This document shows positions 1 through 38,308 of a DNA stretch of 51,262 bases, piece after piece (position 1 is the stretch's first letter; each line of letters begins with the position of its first letter). Both the position numbers and the translations under genes were made by a program. The notes below the pieces were generated by a model that searched no databases, was not told the origin of the DNA, and saw nothing but the letters and a program-made list of their open reading frames with translations. Source of the stretch: Coriobacteriia bacterium (GTDB lineage Bacteria > Actinomycetota > Coriobacteriia > Anaerosomatales > PALSA-660); the NCBI GenBank assembly GCA_025361505.1, contig JANYKZ010000077.1:1-51262 (forward strand), in the 5' to 3' direction.

Positions 1-19
1 TGTTGCTCCTATGTCAATC

Positions 20-1102
20 CTACACGGCGACGGCGACCTCCGCCGCCCGGAAGCGACCCGTGACGACGCGCCCCGATGCGGCCGATCGCTCAGCCCGAAG
101 CATCGTCTTGAACACGACCCTGGCCAGCTGCCGCTTCAGACACCGCAGCGCCTCGCGGTAGCTCATGCCTGCCGCCTGCTTGCGCTGCATGTAGGTGATC
201 GCCGGCGGGTGCATCCGCGCCTGGGTGACGGCGATCATGTGGATGGTGGAGTTCAGGCTTCGGTTGCCGCATCTGTTGAGGCGGTGACGGTTGCTTTGCC
301 CTGACGAGGCCGGCAGTGGCGCCACCCCGACGTGCATCGCGAACGCCGCCTCGCCACTGAAACGCGAGGCACCCGCGGTCTGTCCCACGAGCTGCGCGGC
401 GCACAGCGCCGAGCATCCCGGGATCTCAAGCAGCGCCGGAGCGAGCTCCTGCATCCGGATGGCGATCTCGCGCTCGAGTGAGCGGATCTCTTTCGTCAGC
501 TCGCGGCACCGCATCAGCTGGTCGAGCGCGATGCGGCGGCGGACGCTCTCGGGAAGGGCCACCAAGACGTCTTGGAGGCGATCGAGCCACACGTAGCGGT
601 CGAGCACCCGGGGCGGCAGTATGAGCCCGATCTCGAGGTCGTGACAGTTCCAGCGCAGCCTCTTCTGGATGCGTTTGCGCTCGTCGACCAGGGTGTCGCG
701 GTGGTCGACAAGCAGCCGGACGTCGTGTTCTGGGCCGGTCAGTGACGCCTCGGGAAGGCTCGGCTCCCGCAGGGCTGCTCTGGCCACGCACTCGGCGTCG
801 ATCGGGTCGGACTTGCCGTAGCAGCGCGCGGAGTGCCTGGCTCCCGCCATCATCTTGGGTGGCACCCGCACGACTCGCTCGCCCCTCGGGATCAGGTGCC
901 GCTCGAGGCGCCCCGAGACGTGCCGGCAGTCCTCGATGGCGAAGTAGTGGTCGCCGGGAAGCGCGCGTGCCCACACAAGCAACTCGTCGTGTCCGGCGTC
1001 GGAGCAGGTCACCGTCCGCTCGCCGAGTGCGCGGCCCGTGGCTGCGTCGAGCGCCACGGCGGTGTGGGTCTTCATGTGCGGATCGATCCCGATTACGATC
1101 AT
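20..1102 (-). CDS. IS110-family transposase/recombinase (DEDD RuvC-like domain plus C-terminal Tnp domain)
   Basis: MIVIGIDPH, AIED, GKSDPIDA, IPG, GVAPLPASSG and RLNRCGNRSL motifs. SD-like GGAAGGGG before the ATG at 1102. Confidence 0.95.
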   Translation of the reverse strand: MIVIGIDPHMKTHTAVALDAATGRALGERTVTCSDAGHDELLVWARALPGDHYFAIEDCRHVSGRLERHLIPRGERVVRVPPKMMAGARHSARCYGKSDPIDAECVARAALREPSLPEASLTGPEHDVRLLVDHRDTLVDERKRIQKRLRWNCHDLEIGLILPPRVLDRYVWLDRLQDVLVALPESVRRRIALDQLMRCRELTKEIRSLEREIAIRMQELAPALLEIPGCSALCAAQLVGQTAGASRFSGEAAFAMHVGVAPLPASSGQSNRHRLNRCGNRSLNSTIHMIAVTQARMHPPAITYMQRKQAAGMSYREALRCLKRQLARVVFKTMLRAERSAASGRVVTGRFRAAEVAVAV

Positions 1103-1109
1103 GCCTGCC

Positions 1110-1325
1110 CCTTCCGTCGGCCTTACCCGATGGTGGGGACCGCTGGCGGACACGCCTTAGCGGGGGCCTATTGGCCAGGCTCCTATCAGGTCACGTCGGC
1201 GACCCCTCGGTTCCCGGCGACGGAGGACGAAACAGCGGAAGGTCAACCCCACAAGGGGTGACAGAAGCGATTCGGGTCACTCCGTCGTCGGGACCGAGGC
1301 TACCTGACTCAAGGTCAGGAATCCC
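1110..1325 (-). ncRNA. Putative IS110 bridge RNA
   Basis: 5' hairpin (1303-1319), long stem with large internal loop (1205-1299), and a second loop carrying ATAGGAGCCT and CTAAGGC, which match the predicted circle junction ATAGGAGCCTTAG. RNA ends are approximate. Confidence 0.7.
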
Positions 1326-1347
1326 ACGAGCGCAGAGTGACACTAAG

Positions 1348-1363
1348 GATGCGCTTGTTCTGC
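1348..1363 (-). other. attC site, 5' part (R'' and start of L''), interrupted by IS110; remainder at 1-4 and beyond the window
   Basis: GCAGAAC-AAGCG-CATC resembles the sibling sites. R'' GCAGAAC is the exact complement of GTTCTGC at the start of this cassette. Confidence 0.8.
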
Positions 1364-1721: not shown

Positions 1722-1807
1722 GCAGAACGTTGGGCGCGTCAGCGGTGGACTGCGCCGTTTCCTTGTTGCTCAGAGCCTACGCCACCCGCTGGACGCGCTT
1801 GTTCGGT
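1722..1807 (-). other. attC recombination site (86 bp)
   Basis: ACCGAAC AAGCG CGTCCAGCGG...CCGCTGACGCG CCCAAC GTTCTGC: imperfect palindrome with R''/L''/L'/R' layout and an extra base in L''. Confidence 0.85.
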
Positions 1808-2107: not shown

Positions 2108-2193
2108 ACCGAACGTCTGGCGCGTAACCTCCGCGCTCATTTCCCTGCATTGTGCGCTTGCCAAGACGCGTGAGGTTGACGCGCTTGTTCGAC
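2108..2193 (-). other. attC recombination site (86 bp)
   Basis: GTCGAAC AAGCG CGTCAACCTC...GAGGTTACGCG CCAGAC GTTCGGT: same architecture as 1722-1807. Confidence 0.85.
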
Positions 2194-2499: not shown

Positions 2500-2535
2500 G
2501 TCGAACAATGCTTCTACGGTCTGGATAACAACCAA
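2500..2535 (-). other. Candidate attI-like site at the head of the cassette array
   Basis: GTTCGAC (2506-2500) complements R'' GTCGAAC of the first cassette's attC. The sequence upstream is AT-richer and not an attC hairpin. Confidence 0.5.
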
Positions 2536-16003: not shown

Positions 16004-16089
16004 GCCCGGGTGGCGGAACGGCAGACGCGGGGGCCTCAAAAGCCTCTATGTGAAAGCATGTGTGGGTTCGAATCCCACCCCGGGCACCA
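16004..16089 (+). tRNA. tRNA-Leu(CAA)
   Basis: Acceptor stem GCCCGGG/CCCGGGC, anticodon arm GGGGC-CTCAAAA-GCCTC, long variable arm, GGTTCGAATCC, encoded CCA. Confidence 0.97.
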
Positions 16090-21577: not shown

Positions 21578-24500
21578 CTACGCTGCCTTTGCGGCGGCGC
21601 GTGCCGCCGCCAGCGACGGCCTGAACCGACGCAGCAGCAGCGAGCTCGTGACGACGCTCACGCTGGAGAACGCCATGGCGGCGCCGGCGATCCACGGGAA
21701 CTGCGACAGCAGGCCGACCGCGGCGACCGGGATGCCGAGGGTGTTGTAGCCGAGCGCCCAGAAGAAGTTCTGGTGGATCTTGCGCATGGTGGCGCGGGAC
21801 AGCTCGATCGCCGTCACGACGTCGCGCAGGTCGTTCTTGATGAGCACGATGCCGCCGGTCTCCATGGCGACGTCGGTGCCCGCGCCCATGGCGATGCCCA
21901 CGTCGGCCTTCGCGAGCGCCGGAGTGTCGTTGATGCCGTCGCCGACCATGGCGACGACCAGGCCCTTGTCCTGCAGCTTGGCGACCTCTTCGGCCTTGTT
22001 CTCCGGAAGCACTTCGGCCAGCACGTTCTCGGGCCTGATGCCGGCCTGGGAGGCGATGGCCTCGGCGGTCCGCCGGTTGTCGCCGGTGATCATGTAGACC
22101 GCGACGCCCATCTTCGACAGGCGCTCCACGGCCTCCTTGGAGTTGTCCTTGAGCGTATCGGCCACGGCGATGATCCCGGCCAGCTTCGCGCCGTTGACGC
22201 CGACGAGCATGACAGTCTTGCCCTGCCCCTCGAGCTCAGCGATCCGGTCCTCGAAGCGGGAGATGTCGATGCCCTCGCGGACCATCAGCCGCCGGTTGCC
22301 GAACGCGACCTTCGTGCCGCCGACCGTGCCCTCGACGCCGTGCCCGGGAACGGCCGCGAAGCCTTCGACGTCCGGGACGTCGATACCGTCGGCCTTGGCG
22401 CGCGCCATGATCGCCTCGGCCAAGGGGTGCTCGGAGTTGCGCTCCAGCGCCGCCGCGAAGGTGAACACGCGGGTCGTGTCGTGGCCCTCGGCCAACTCGA
22501 CGTCGGTGACGACGGGCTTGCCGTAGGTCAGCGTCCCGGTCTTGTCGAACACGATCGCCTTGATCTTGTAGGCGGTCTCCAGAGCGTCGCCGCTCTTGAT
22601 CAGGATGCCGTTCTCGGCGCCCTTGCCTGTGCCGACCATGATGGCCGTCGGCGTGGCGAGTCCGAGCGCGCACGGGCACGCGATTACGACCACCGCGATC
22701 CCGGCGAGCAGCGCCGCCACCCACCAACCGCTTGTCGCGGCCGCTGTCAGGATCGGGGCCAGCAACGGGAATGCGCCGGCGGGATCCGGATGAGCGCCGA
22801 ACATCAATGGGCCGGCGAACAACCAGAACAGGAAGGTCAGGAGCGCCGCGCTCACGACGGCGGGGACGAACACCGACGAGATGCGGTCCGCGAAGCGCTG
22901 CACGGGTGCCTTGGAACCCTGCGCCTCCTCGACGAGCCTCACGATCTGCGCCAGCGCGGTGTCGCGGCCGACCTTCGTGGCGCGGAAGCGCAGCGAGCCG
23001 AGCTTGTTCATGGTCGCGCCGATCACGGTGTCGCCGACGTTCTTCTCGACGGGGATGGACTCACCGGTGAGCATCGACTCGTCGACGCTGCTGTGACCCT
23101 CGATGACCAGACCGTCGATGGGGACCTTCTCACCCGGACGGACGACGACGAGGTCACCGGCCACGACCCGCTCGGACGGGATGTCGATCTCCACGCCGTC
23201 GCGCACGACGCGCGCGGTCTTGGCCGCCAGCCCCATGAGCTTCTTGATCGCGTCGCCCGTGCGTCCCTTCGCGCGGGCCTCGAGCAGCTTGCCCAGGATC
23301 ACGAAGGTGAGCAGCAGCGCGGAGGTCTCGAAGAAGACCGGCTCGCCCTGCAACTGCGGGATGAACGTGGCCGCGACGCTGTAGAAGTACGCGGCCGACG
23401 TGCCGATGGCGATCAGGGTGTCCATGTTGCCGCTCCGGCGCTTGAGCGCGTGCCAGAAGCCGCGATAGAACTGGGCGCCGGCGATGATCTGGACCGGCGT
23501 GACGAGGGCGAAGGCCATGTAGCGGCCGACCATCATCGGGTCCCAGGCGCCCCCGACGGTGGTGGCGAGCCAGCCCGCGACCGCGGCCGGGACCGCCGTC
23601 ATGAACGGCGGGACCATCGAGATCAGGAAGGCCGGGACGGCCAGCACCAGGGAGAACACGAACAGGCGGCGCTCGTGGAGCCAGTGGGCACGCTGCGCCT
23701 CACGCTGCGCGTCGTTGGGGTCCTCGCCCGCGACGGTTGCCTCGACGCGGAGCATCGCGTCGTACCCGGCGCCCCGCACTGCGCCGATGAGCGCGTCGAT
23801 GCCGAGGACGGTGGGATCGAAGGTGATGGTCGCGGTCTCGTTCGCGAGGTTGACGCTCGCCGAGGCGACGCCCTCCAGGTGATCGAGGGTCTTCTCGATG
23901 ACGGCGGAACACGATGCGCAGGTCATCCCGAGGATGCCGAGCGTGACGGTCGCCATGGTGGTGGCCGAGGGTGACGATGCGGTCGCGGCCACGCCGGACT
24001 CGAGCGGAAGGGCCCCGTAGCCGGCGCGCTTGACGGCGTCGATGATGCCGGCCTCGTCGAGCGCGGCCGGATCGTAGGAGACGGACAGGCGCTCCATGGC
24101 GAGGTTGACGTTGGCGGTGCCGACGCCCGGCAGCTTGCCGACGACCTTCTCGACGACGGCCGAGCACGAGGCGCAGGTCATGCCGGTGATACCGAAGGTG
24201 GCATCGCGCAGCGCGGGAGCGGACTCGGTGGCCCGTGCGGGCACGAGCGGGGCCGGCTCGTCCGGCGGCATGATGGGGCATGCGGCGGCGGACTCTACGG
24301 GAGCGAGCGCCACGACGTCCGGTGCGGGCACGGGCAGCGCGCCCGGCTCGAGCACGAACGGCTCGCCCGGCCGGAAGCCGGCCGCGACGACGGCGGCGGC
24401 GAGGGCGTCCAGCGAGATGTCGCCGGGGGCGAGTGTGATATCGACGAACCCCGCAGCGGCGTCGGCGGTCACCGACTCGACCCCCGGTACGTCACCGATC

Positions 24501-24583
24501 GTGCCGGACACGAGCTTCTCGCACGCGTGGCAGTGCATCCCCGTGACACTGAGGCGCACCGTCCGGTCCAGATCGTTCGTCAT
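21578..24583 (-). CDS. copA: Cu(I)-translocating P1B-1 ATPase with three HMA domains
   Basis: GMHCHAC, GMTCASC twice, TGES, CPC, DKTGT, SEHP, GDGIND, YN, MAFSS. Confidence 0.95.
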
Positions 24584-24692
24584 GGTTTGGTCCCGCCTGG
24601 CGTCGTAGCGAACCCATGGGCGTCCGCGCTCGTTTGCACGCTTGCAGCGTAGCGCATGGCGCGAGCGCGGGTTCCGGCGTACCTCGCGCCGT

Positions 24693-25787
24693 TCAGGGCG
24701 CGAGGGGCACGGAGAACCCCACGATCGCTCCTCCGTCGTGGTTGCGCGCAAACACGGTGCCACCGTGATCCTCGACGATCCGGCGTGAGACGGCGAGCCC
24801 TATGCCGCTGCCGCCCGTGTCGCGTGCCCGCGCCGTGTCCGCGCGGTAGAAGCGTTCGAACACGAACGGAAGGTCGGCCTCAGGGATCCCCTCGCCGCTG
24901 TCCACGACCTCCACGATCGCGCGCTCGTCCGATCGTTGGCATCTCACCAGGATCGTGCCCGCATCGGTGTGGCGAAGCGCGTTGTCGACGAGGTTGCGCA
25001 GCACCTGAGCGAGGCGGCCTTCATCTCCGATCACGGCGAGCGCCTCGGAGCACTCCGCCGCGACCTCCACGTCGGCGCCCGCGCGTGCCCGGGCACGCGT
25101 GACTTCCGCGTCGATGATCGGGGCCACCAGGAGGCGCTCCATCCGGTAGGTCAACCGTCCCGCATCGGCCGCCGACAGTTCCTGAAGATCGTCGACGAGA
25201 CGCGAGAGGTGCTGCGTGTCCTCCACGAGCGAGGTCAGGCGTTTCGGGTCAGGGGCTAGAACGCCCTCGGCGATCCCTTCCGCCTGCGCTCGGAGCGACG
25301 CGACCGGGTTGCGCAGTTCGTGGGCTACGTCGGCCACGAGCCTGCGCCTCAGCCCCTCGGACCGGGCAAGCGACACGGCCATCGCGTTGAACGCCTCCCC
25401 GAGCCGGCTGACCTCGAGGGGACCGCCGGTATCGACACGGTACGTCAGGTCGCCGGCAGCGACCTGCTTCGCAGCCGACGTGAGACGCTTGAGGGGACGT
25501 GTGAGGTAGTAGGCGCCTGCGGCCGCGACCACCCCCGCGAGTCCGATCGCCAGCAGCGCGCCGAGAAGGATGCCCCTGTCGACCGCCGCGAGGAACGCCT
25601 GTTCCGGCACACCCATCATGCCGCCGGCGCCCATCATGCCGCGCCCCATGCCGACGGGCAGAGTCTGCAGGTAGGCGCCGAACGCGGACGAGATCTCCGC
25701 GCGCGTGAATATCCCGGCGATGCCGACGGACAGCAACGCCACGACGACCATCGCGAGGAACGCGTACACCAGAAGAGAACGCTTCAC
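24693..25787 (-). CDS. Membrane sensor histidine kinase (HAMP; BaeS/CopS-like)
   Basis: Two TM helices with a Met-rich loop, [31 protein letters not shown]. Confidence 0.93.
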
Positions 25788-34710: not shown

Positions 34711-37704
34711 CTAGGCGGCCTTCGAGAAGCTGGGCTTGAACCGGCGCAGCAGCAGCGAGCTGCTCACGACGCTAACGCTGGAGAGCGCCATGGCGGCGCC
34801 GGCCAGTTCCGGCCGGAGGAGCCCCAGCGCGGCGATCGGGATGCCGAGCGTGTTGTAGCCGAGCGCCCAGAAGAAGTTCTGGTAGATCTTGCGCATGGTG
34901 GCGCGGGACAGCTCGATCGCGGTCACCACGTCGCGCAGGTCGTTCTTGATGAGGACGATGCCGCCGGTCTCCATGGCGACGTCCGTGCCGCCGCCCATGG
35001 CGATGCCGACGTCGGCCTTCGCAAGCGCCGGCGTGTCGTTGATGCCGTCTCCGACCATGGCGACGACGAGTCCCTTTGCCTGGAGCTTGCCGACCTCTTC
35101 GGCCTTGTTCTCCGGGAGCACCTCGGCGAGGACGTTCTCGGGCCTGATGCCGGCCTGCGAGGCGATGGCCTCGGCGGTGCGGCGGTTGTCGCCCGTGATC
35201 ATGTACACGGCCACGCCCATCTTGGTGAGCCGCTCCACCGCTTCCTTGGAGTTGTCCTTCAGCGTGTCCGCCACGGCGATGAGGCCGGCGGCCTGTCCGT
35301 CGATCGCAGTGAGCATGACCGTCTTGCCCTCGGACTCGAGGCGCTCGATGCGGACCGCGAACTCGGCGATGTCGACGCCTTCACGCTCCATGAGCCTGCG
35401 GTTGCCCAGCGCGACGCGCCGGCCTTCGACGATGCCCTCGACTCCGTGACCGGGAACGGCCTCGAAGCCGGTGACGTCGCCGAGCACGAGTCCGTTCTCG
35501 TTGGCGTAGTTGACGATCGCCTCGGCCAGCGGATGTTCGCTGCTTCTCTCCAGCGCGGCCGCGAGCCGGTAGAACTCCATGCGGTCGAACGACCCGAACG
35601 GACCGAACTCCGTCACCACGGGCTTGCCGTAGGTCAGCGTGCCGGTCTTGTCGAACACGATCGCCTTGATCTTGTAGGCGGTCTCAAGGGCGTCACCGCT
35701 CTTGATGAGGATGCCGTTCTCGGCGCCCTTGCCGGTACCGACCATGATGGCCGTCGGCGTGGCGAGCCCGAGCGCGCAGGGGCAGGCGATGACGATGACC
35801 GCGGTCCCGGCGAGCAGCGCCTTCACGAACGGCGTGGCGAACGCGTAGAACGAGGCGTCAACGAAGCCCGGCACGACGAACAGCCAGATGAAGAAGGTCG
35901 CCAGAGCGATGGTGATGACGGCCGGTACGAACACGGCCGAGATCCGGTCGGCGAAGCGCTGCACGGGCGCCTTGGAGCCCTGAGCGTCCTCCACGAGACG
36001 GACGATCTGCGCCAGTGCGGTGTCCTTGCCGACCTTGGTGGCGCGGAACCTGAGCGAGCCGAGCTTGTTCATCGTCGCGCCGATGACCGAGTCACCGACG
36101 TTCTTCTCGACCGGCATGGACTCGCCGGTGAGCATCGACTCGTCGATGCTGCTGCGTCCTTCGACGACGAGGCCGTCGACCGGGACCTTCTCACCGGGGC
36201 GGACCACGACGACGTCGCCGGCCACGACCTGCTCGACCGGGATGTCGAGCTCGACGCCGCCGCGCACGACGCGCGCCGTCTTGGCGGCAAGGCCCATGAG
36301 CTTCTTGATGGCGTCCGAGGTCTTGCCCTTCGCGCGCGCCTCGAGCAGCTTGCCCAGGATGACGAAGGTGATGAGCAGCCCGGCGGTCTCGAAGAAGACC
36401 GGCTCGGCCTGCAGCGACGGGATGAACGTCGCGGCCACGCTGTAGAAGTACGCCGCCGACGTGCCGATGGCGATGAGCGTGTCCATGTTGCCGCTGCGGC
36501 GCTTGAGCGCGTGCCAGAAGCCGCGGTAGAACTGCGCGCCCGCGATGAACTGGACCGGCGTGATCAGGGCGAAGGCCATGTACTTGAGGACCATCATCGG
36601 GTCCCAGGCGCCGCCGAACGTGCTGGCGAGCCAGGTGGCCACGGCGGCCGGCACCACGGTCATGAACGGCGGCACCATGGAGATGAGGAACGCCGGCAAC
36701 GCCAGCAGCAGCGAGAACATGAAGAGCCACTGCTGGTGCTTGGTGTGCTTCGCCTGCGCGACGCGCTGGGCGTCCTCCGCGGGGGCGTCGGCGGACGTGC
36801 CGGTCTCCACGCGGAGCATCGCCTCGTAGCCGGCGCCCTTCACCGCGCCGATGAGGGTGTCCAGGCCGACGACGGCCGGGTCGAACGTCACCGTGGCGGT
36901 CTCCAGCGCGAGGTTCACGGAGGCCGACTGCACTCCGGTCACCTTGTTGAGCGTCTTCTCGATCACGGCGGAACAGGAGGAGCAGGTCATCCCGACAAGA
37001 CCGAGCGTGACCGTGCCCATCGGCGAGCCCTTACCGGATGACGCGGTGGCCGTGGTCACGGCCGGTGCCGCAGCGGGCACGGGGGCGTCGAGCGGTATGG
37101 CGCCGTAGCCGGCCTTCTTGACCGCCTCGGCGATGCGGACCTCGTCGGTGACCGACGGATCCAGCTTGACCGACATCCTCTCGGTCGCGAGATTGACCGT
37201 GACGGCCTGGACGCCGGCGACCTTGCCGACGACCTTCTCGATCACGGCGGAGCACGACGCGCAGGTCATCCCCGTGACGGCGAACGATGCGTCGCGGACC
37301 GCCGAAGCGGCGCCGGACGGTGCGGCAGGCGCGGCGGGAACCATCACGGCGACGGGCTCGGCCACGACCGGGCAGGCTGCGGGCGCTATCGCGGGGCCCG
37401 AGGCGACCCCGACCAGGGGACTCGCGGCGATCGCGACTCCCTCAGGGACGAAGCCGCAGGCCACGATGACGCGGGCGATGTCCACGTCGGTGAGGACGGC
37501 GGGATCCGCGAGGACGGACACCATTCCGGTCCGTGCATCCGCGGACACGGCGCCGACGCCGGGCTGGCGTCCGAGCGCCTCGACGAGCAGGTTCTCGCAC
37601 GAGCGGCAATCCATGCCGTCGACCCTGAGCCGGCGGAGCACCGGCCCTCGTGATGTCGCGATCTCGGGCTCCGTGCGGGAGCCTGTGAATTCGGTCGTTT
37701 CCAT
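34711..37704 (-). CDS. copA: Cu(I)-translocating P1B-1 ATPase with three HMA domains (paralog)
   Basis: GMDCRSC, GMTCASC, GMTCSSC, CPC, DKTGT, GDGIND, YN, MALSS; SD AGAGGAG. Confidence 0.95.
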
Positions 37705-37711
37705 GGCTCCT

Positions 37712-38308
37712 CTACTCTGCCGTGATGCTGCCATGCACCATGTGCATGCCGCAGCTGAAGGGGTAGACGCCGGGCTCGAGCGCGGGGATGGTGACGACCG
37801 CGCCGCCGTGGGTGAGGTCAGCCTCGATGCCGAGGCCCTCGAACACGACGGTCGCCAGACAACCGCTGCCCTCCGAGAACGTGATCTCGAGCGGGATGCC
37901 CGCGGCGACCACGATGTCGGACGGGTCGTAGTCGTCCGTGACCTCGATACGGACGCGCTGTGACAGCGAAGTCTCGACCGGGACGCGGACCGGGACGCGC
38001 GGGGGCTCCGGAGCCTCCAGCGCCACGGTCTCGGCCAGCGTGAGCGGGATCCGCTCGGTGAGCCGCTCGAACGGGGTGGCCACCACGGACTCCGGCGCGA
38101 ACCCGGCGGTGACGACCGCCTTCACGATGTCTTCGTACAGGTCGGTGTCGGCCGAAGCGAGCGCGATGAGCGTCCCCTCGTTGTTGACCGCGACGATCTC
38201 GACGCCGTCGATGTCGCGCACGAGCATGGTCGCCAGCGTCTCGCCGGACCGACAGGCTCCTTGGCCGAGCGCCACGCGGTAGACATCTTTGATGACTCCG
38301 TTTGCCAT
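37712..38308 (-). CDS. Degenerate HMA-like domain plus cupredoxin domain protein
   Basis: N-terminal ACRSG...AGF; C-terminal [18 protein letters not shown]. Confidence 0.8.

Follow-up and report, generated by a model that had tools for sequence, protein, structure and literature searches.

How does a mobile element come to lie inside an integron attC site, and by what means would it have recognised that site? The question is raised by the start of contig JANYKZ010000077.1 (assembly GCA_025361505.1; contig C102 in our analysis), of which positions 1–51,262 make up the stretch analysed here (the window). The contig belongs to a genome bin of 1.9 Mb in 109 contigs, a metagenome-assembled genome (MAG) about 90% complete. 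A first-pass annotation, made from the letters of the window, had seen at its left edge an IS110 element inserted into the L'' box of an attC site, and had proposed that the element is RNA-guided and forms a lineage of its own. Our analysis makes it highly probable that window positions 2–1346 are an intact IS110-type insertion sequence (IS) of an attC-targeting clade, guided by a bridge RNA and inserted 3' of the extrahelical C of the site. The clade is a deep one, carried mainly by uncultured Actinomycetota (Coriobacteriia and others).

The element and its place in attC

The element and the remnants of its target, here called attC-1, are laid out as follows.

2–1346, minus strand: inserted DNA of the IS110-type element (1345 bp; ends placed by comparison of 77 copies)
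20–1102, minus strand: DEDD transposase/recombinase gene (360 aa; ATG at 1102, stop TAG at 22–20)
1103–1346, minus strand: left-end non-coding region, encoding the predicted bridge RNA (244 nt; conserved among 60 distinct copies)
1347–1363, minus strand: retained 5' part of attC-1 (R'' GCAGAAC at 1363–1357, spacer AA at 1356–1355, L'' half GCGCATC at 1354–1348)
1, minus strand: far (3') part of attC-1, the only base of it left on the contig (placed from the contig start and the comparison of copies)

Read on the minus strand, the element starts with TTAGTG... at 1346 and ends with ...GGAGCAAC at 2. Its transposase matches the Pfam families PF01548 (E 5.9e-16) and PF02371 (E 2.7e-18), and the presence of both the DEDD N-terminal and the IS116/IS110/IS902 C-terminal domain makes it a member of the IS110 family in the sense of ISfinder; the NCBIfam model NF033542, 'IS110 family RNA-guided transposase', gives it 176.2 bits at a cut-off of 140. 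The non-coding DNA measures 244 nt 5' of the transposase gene and 17 nt after its stop codon, and the long non-coding region also lies 5' of the gene in the 67 copies whose start codon could be placed, with left ends mostly of 245–253 nt. The longest exact inverted match between the two ends is 5 bp (TGTCA, at offsets 4 and 9). No convincing junction promoter was seen by eye (no tool was run), the right-end TTGACA having no well-spaced -10. In run X7, which belongs to another study, one assembled contig contains the element (2 differences over 1230 bases) and breaks off at its first base, 1346.

We examined the neighbouring hairpins with a covariance model built from 28 unoccupied attC sites from arrays of other genomes, none of them from the window. 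The model found exactly two full-length matches in the window, both on the minus strand, and the next best had E 2.1.

1722–1807, minus strand: attC-2, intact 86-bp site (cmsearch 43.4 bits, E 1.8e-8, full length)
2108–2193, minus strand: attC-3, intact 86-bp site (cmsearch 47.5 bits, E 1.9e-9, full length)

These two sites were also the sole matches in the whole genome, where 150 of 4056 first-look candidates were scored. Both fold as imperfect hairpins with one extra G in the plus-strand 3' arm, and they have the R''/R' and L''/L' boxes and the extrahelical base on the R''–L'' arm (column 16 of the model) that define attC. The sibling sites to which the first-pass annotation had compared the interrupted one are therefore attC sites. 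A 10-mer common to all three sites occurs nine times in the 1.9-Mb genome, three of them within 1351–2190.

As had been proposed, we collected homologues of the transposase and aligned their flanks. A metagenome scan returned 79 loci with transposases 62–91% identical, and a genome scan (one genome per species) returned 45. From both scans together we assembled 77 distinct complete copies, including that of the window. A left flank of 16 nt or more is available for 73 copies, and in 64 of these AAC lies 9–11 nt upstream of the element, the typical left flank being an R'' box, two bases and then GCGC-W-TC; the distance from the R'' box is thus the same in these 64. On the downstream side we applied a strict test, the L' complement of the left flank (at most one mismatch) followed by GTT, and it was passed by 44 of the 66 copies evaluable on both sides. 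The orientation of the element is uniform in all copies, with the transposase in the sense of the cassettes; at nine related loci, 37 of 38 matches to the attC model were co-oriented with the transposase, and the exception is a locus stored in contig orientation.

Comparison of the copies also allowed us to place the junction. The two flanks quoted in the first-pass annotation are present, GCAGAACAAGCGCATC being the reverse complement of 1348–1363 and CAACA that of 1–5. Its insertion into the L'' box of attC stands, directly after column 16, whereas its exact junction is off by three to four bases. CAAC had been taken as the far flank, rejoined to the left flank through one shared C. However, after ...GGAG the 77 copies have CAA in 73 cases and C as the fourth base in 70, whatever the attC type, which makes CAA part of the element. 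In 32 of the 44 sites with an identifiable L' box, these three bases come before the point at which the attC stem resumes. Empty sites were looked for in 493,875 bases of neighbouring arrays, which hold no uninterrupted site of the rejoined form. Unoccupied sites of the same arrays instead read GCGC-W-TC, one variable base (C, G or A) and then AGCNG or similar. The first base after the left flank varies likewise, being C in 46 copies, G in 27 and A in 4 (n = 77), and in one array near-identical copies of the element have C or G at the left junction, as do their unoccupied neighbours. Given the constant CAA(C), the resumption of the stem and the form of the unoccupied sites, we regard CAAC as part of the element and the variable base as target-derived. 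This makes 2–1346 the inserted DNA and leaves base 1 as the only far flank; the likeness of the rejoined site to the sibling's CGTCAACC is partly coincidence. Positions 1347–1363 correspond to columns 1–17 of the attC model, column 16 being the unpaired (extrahelical) C and base 1347 the target-derived base at the crossover. The model thus puts the insertion point in the R''–L'' arm, directly 3' of the predicted extrahelical C of the L'' box.

A predicted bridge RNA with guides for target and donor

The 244-nt left end is where an IS110-type element would encode its guide RNA. RNAalifold, run on 60 distinct left ends, gave 51 pairs, 7 of which have changes on both sides (compensatory). Two loops are predicted, the fold of the second (donor) loop being the less certain.

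1218–1290, minus strand: predicted target-binding loop (outer stem 1290–1276 with 1228–1218; inner hairpin 1262–1242)
1264–1272 (left, read 1272–1264) and 1231–1238 (right, read 1238–1231), minus strand: target guides, in the internal loop between outer stem and inner hairpin
1155–1187, minus strand: predicted donor-binding loop (left guide 1187–1179, hairpin 1179–1165, right guide 1161–1155)

Pair 112/126 of the inner hairpin is GC in 35 and AU in 20 of the 60 sequences. On the 5' side of the target loop, nine bases repeat the sequence of the left flank, and on its 3' side lies the complement of the right flank: the left guide, 9 nt, equals the attC spacer plus the L'' half (AA GCGC WTC), and the right guide is complementary to the next five or so bases (AGCNG). 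We compared guides with flanks in 54 distinct guide/flank combinations and in 10,000 shuffles. The left guide was identical to its own left flank at 6.69 of 9 positions (shuffled 5.77 ± 0.13, maximum 6.24), and the right guide fitted its own right flank at 6.82 of 8 (shuffled 6.32 ± 0.07, maximum 6.61); no shuffle reached either value. The match of the left guide was exact in 9 of the 54 combinations, had at most one mismatch in 26 and at most two in 39, while for the right guide the corresponding counts were 13, 38 and 50. Guide and flank vary together, as in CAGCGCATC, CCGCGCTTC, CATGGCATC and CCTGGTTTC on the left and AACAGC, AACACC and AAGAGC on the right. The right guide of the window copy predicts a missing flank that begins approximately with AGCGG, like attC-2.

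The donor loop follows the same logic with respect to the ends of the element itself. Its left guide has the sequence of the element's right end, and its right guide is complementary to the left end. In 63 of 67 copies the donor guide matches the left end exactly over four bases, a count that none of 10,000 shuffles reached (mean 30.8, maximum 45); element ends TTAG, TTGG and TTAA pair with CTAA, CCAA and TTAA, respectively, in the RNA gene. With the target guides covarying with the flanks and the donor guide with the element end, beyond all 10,000 shuffles, the proposal that the element is RNA-guided is supported. There is also a match between the right target guide and the last two bases of the element itself, which recalls the 'handshake' pairing reportedly described in the companion structural paper on IS621.

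In IS621 the left guides pair with the bottom strand and the right guides with the top strand, core included (Durrant et al., PMC11208160), and the strand rules of the predicted guides of the present element match these. IS621 and ISEc21 share with it an RNA encoded in the left end, two internal loops (predicted in the present element), left guides in top-strand sense, right guides antisense, and short repeats. They differ in target: those of IS621 and ISEc21 are linear sites, for ISEc21 a conserved stretch of IS3-family genes (PMC11187229), whereas the window clade enters attC. The crossover differs as well, being the CT dinucleotide in IS621 and apparently one base after the constant CAA in the window clade.

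Could attC nevertheless be recognised by the protein, or as a folded single-stranded hairpin, with the guide-like matches as by-products? The insertion point abuts the extrahelical base, attC acts as a folded single strand for the integrase, and many copies tolerate two or three guide mismatches, all of which would fit such recognition. However, by-products of this kind would have to account for the covariation of both target guides with the flanks and of the donor guide with the element end, and for an architecture and strand rules equal to those established experimentally for IS621 and ISEc21 (PMC11187229, PMC11208160). We therefore regard this explanation as improbable, even though it survives better than the other alternatives considered below.

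Guidance by a bridge RNA would operate as follows. The element would express an RNA with two loops, the target loop reading attC and the donor loop the two ends of the element itself. A circularised form of the element would then be joined to attC by the recombinase, presumably at the one-base crossover set out above. The insertion would part the halves of the attC hairpin by 1.3 kb; because of this distance attC-1 should be unusable by the integrase, and the cassette next to it would then lose its mobility, as the first-pass annotation had proposed for cassette 3.

Placement among known attC-targeting elements

Four features tell IS110-type from IS1111-type elements: the transposase, the order of the guides, the sub-terminal repeats and the side of the transposase gene on which the long non-coding region lies (Siddiquee et al., PMC11187229). 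Durrant et al. (PMC11208160) draw the same distinction between left end and right end. As to the order, IS110 types have the guide for the bottom strand first and that for the top strand second (PMC11187229). In all four features, with one protein reference per type, the element of the window is of the IS110 type. Its left guide (left-flank sense) lies 5' of its right guide (right-flank antisense), which is the IS110-type order. In BLASTP its transposase was 33% identical over the full length (364 columns, E 2e-40) to an ISEc21-like IS110-type protein, itself 83.6% identical to a protein annotated as ISEc21 family, whereas its match to IS4321 of plasmid R751, an IS1111 member, was 23% over 177 aa (E 2e-5).

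This bears directly on whether the element could simply belong to IS1111-attC, the published group of ISPa21, ISPst6, ISKpn4 and ISPa25. Members of that group express their RNA from a downstream non-coding region and have 11–13-bp sub-terminal repeats (PMC11187229); ISPa21 and ISPst6 lie antisense to the cassettes and insert near the 5' end of attC (PMC3001079), and IS1111-attC elements are thought to freeze cassettes (PMC11187229, PMC3001079, PMC11616780). The likeness is considerable, comprising the same ISfinder super-family, a DEDD recombinase, an RNA from the element's own non-coding region and a fixed position near the attC 5' end, the same kind of target (PMC3001079). The window clade inserts into attC with specificity for site and orientation too (64 of 73 copies, one orientation), but in sense. 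It has neither the IS1111-type transposase nor the downstream RNA region nor the 11–13-bp repeats. Its RNA gene is upstream, its inverted repeat is 5 bp, its guide order is opposite and its hosts are Actinomycetota, while those of IS1111-attC are Proteobacteria. Together with the higher and full-length identity to the ISEc21-like protein, these differences make membership in the IS1111-attC group very improbable. They support the first-pass annotation both on the upstream, IS110-group layout and on a lineage separate from IS1111-attC.

Other known systems are more distant. Group IIC-attC introns are likewise attC specialists that insert near the 5' end (PMC3001079), but, as retroelements that carry a reverse transcriptase, they use unrelated machinery. 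We found no publication on an IS110-type element that targets attC, in a search that did not cover ISfinder or the supplementary target tables of PMC11208160 and PMC11187229. The mechanism would be the published bridge-RNA or seek-RNA one; what is new is the combination of IS110-type architecture, an attC target and Actinomycetota hosts. We consider it likely, with less confidence than the identity of the element itself, that an IS110-type lineage acquired attC targeting independently and has diversified together with the integrons of uncultured Actinomycetota, its guides tracking the local attC type.

Several points weigh against an intact, RNA-guided, attC-targeting element. The contig begins at window base 1, and the rest of the interrupted attC-1 is absent from the assembly, for which reason the target of the window copy is known on one side only. 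No integron integrase (TIGR02249, cut-off 265 bits) was found in the window's own genome, where the best score was 76.2 bits, with no match on the contig. Among the relatives, AAC is not at the expected distance in 9 of 73 copies, and 22 of 66 fail the strict downstream test, many of them still attC-like by eye and a few not. In 15 of the 54 combinations the left guide departs from its flank at more than two positions, and that of the window copy matches its own flank at 7 of 9 positions only. Related copies share guides and host arrays, so that the shuffles overstate independence and their outcomes are counts, not probabilities. The folding of the predicted donor loop by RNAalifold is uncertain, and all 20 runs listed for the stretch are DNA. 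Finally, the separation from IS1111-attC rests on IS4321 as a stand-in and on published descriptions.

The parasites previously known from cassette arrays were group IIC introns and a single RNA-guided IS group, IS1111-attC. That a second lineage of RNA-guided elements, of opposite architecture, enters the same attC arm points to this arm as a recurrent weak spot. For the study of bridge RNA reprogramming the clade supplies about 75 natural guide–target pairs and, if its independent origin is true, would constitute a natural series of reprogrammed guides aimed at the region of the attC extrahelical base.

Integrons, hosts and the array of the window

An integron integrase above the cut-off (397–473 bits versus 265) was present in all five relative-bearing genomes searched (G001–G005) and in none of 14 control genomes. 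In four of the five, copies lie 4–65 kb downstream of the integrase gene in the same orientation, and the integrase gene is upstream of and co-oriented with the cassettes, with attC sites beginning about 1 kb downstream of it. G003, the fifth genome, has its integrase match broken into two pieces that lie about 140 kb from the element. True integrons, with integrase and arrays, are thus present in MAGs of Coriobacteriia and other Actinomycetota, while surveys of complete genomes up to 2022 reported that Actinobacteria had no complete integron (PMC4889954, PMC9024848). On one contig of G001, four near-identical copies (L087, L110, L089 and L088) stand within about 23 kb downstream of one integrase gene, each in a different attC, with C or G as the left-junction base.

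The 45 loci of the genome scan indicate the host range. In 41 the genome record is labelled as an Actinomycetota lineage (Coriobacteriia, Anaerosomatales, Thermoleophilia, 'Actinomycetes' and the like); the remaining four are two short contigs labelled Gammaproteobacteria and two partial matches in Eubacteriales. A copper ATPase encoded in the window is 81–84% identical to one in a Coriobacteriia MAG, and together with the hosts of the relatives this lends indirect support to the earlier suggestion of a probable actinobacterium as the source of the window; an actinobacterial host is likely. The closest plasmid-borne relative, on Rhodococcus opacus plasmid pR1CP1 (L147), is 54% identical and has the same right-end motif, ...GAGGAGCAA, but it sits in the middle of a long inverted repeat (arms of about 75 bases) that is not attC. 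Two further loci, L044 and L045, have a common right flank without attC features, and their left flank is an attC R'' box in one and unrelated DNA in the other, which suggests rearrangements at the element ends.

In the window, the minus strand is the attC top strand, and three orphan open reading frames (ORFs) run the same way, none of the three with a match in a Pfam search. The array consists of the following parts.

2500–2506, minus strand: array start, a lone R'-type box GTTCGAC complementary to R'' of attC-3
2505–2114, minus strand: cassette A (ORF 2472–2209)
2113–1728, minus strand: cassette B (ORF about 2080–1739)
1727 onwards, minus strand: cassette C (ORF 1703–1383)

No match to the attC model lies behind the lone R'-type box, which may be attI-like or else a secondary site. 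Complementarity of the outer 7-mers runs across the cassettes, not within the sites (2506–2500 with 2193–2187, 2114–2108 with 1807–1801, and 1728–1722 with 1363–1357), and such complementarity across each cassette is the trace left by cassette boundaries made by an integrase. That the hairpins are not integron attC sites, or that the element landed there by chance, deserves hardly any credence, since a model from integrase-adjoining arrays hits both sites at E around 1e-8 with all others above E 2, the outer boxes pair across cassettes and 64 of 73 copies share the position, against which stand the integrase gene not found in the window's genome and a loose regular expression for attC arms, unspecific and hence replaced by the covariance model, that matched 46 places genome-wide versus 9–15 in shuffles.

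What the window holds is therefore a small array without integrase, truncated where the contig ends. It resembles a CALIN (an attC cluster without integrase; Cury et al. 2016) in having two intact and one split attC and no integrase assembled, but it differs in being cut by the contig end, and with a MAG about 90% complete the integrase may be missing from the assembly. No other contig of the same genome carries element ends or a fitting attC half. Contigs assembled from reads of the source study (runs X1 and X3) also end at base 1, and a contig of run X7 reaches 5 letters beyond it. In run X1 the depth of the element is 18.9 and that of the cassettes 11.2, which fits more than one context.

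Some minor observations concern the same reads. One contig of run X3 joins 2109 to 2502 through a shared CGAAC, the precise absence of the 392-bp cassette A; with a short side of 25 letters and a depth of 3.6 it gives a weak hint of integrase activity or of cassette polymorphism in the population. In run X7, short contigs 90–97% like attC-2 (1725–1803) have a summed depth of about 130 and diverging continuations, as expected where one attC type is common to many cassettes. Run X1 yielded a 177-base contig over 1044–1219 with 13 differences and a depth of 139.8, so that a diverged copy of this region (left end to transposase start) is far more abundant in the X1 sample than the genome of the window.

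The array start adjoins core genes, namely panD, a LysE exporter gene, an AsnC regulator gene and a DegV gene. At the Rfam gathering score a tRNA gene at 16004–16086 was the sole match in the window, with none in the left-end region of the element. Further along, two genes for copper-type heavy-metal P-type ATPases with N-terminal metal-binding repeats occupy 21578–24763 and 34711–37734 on the minus strand.

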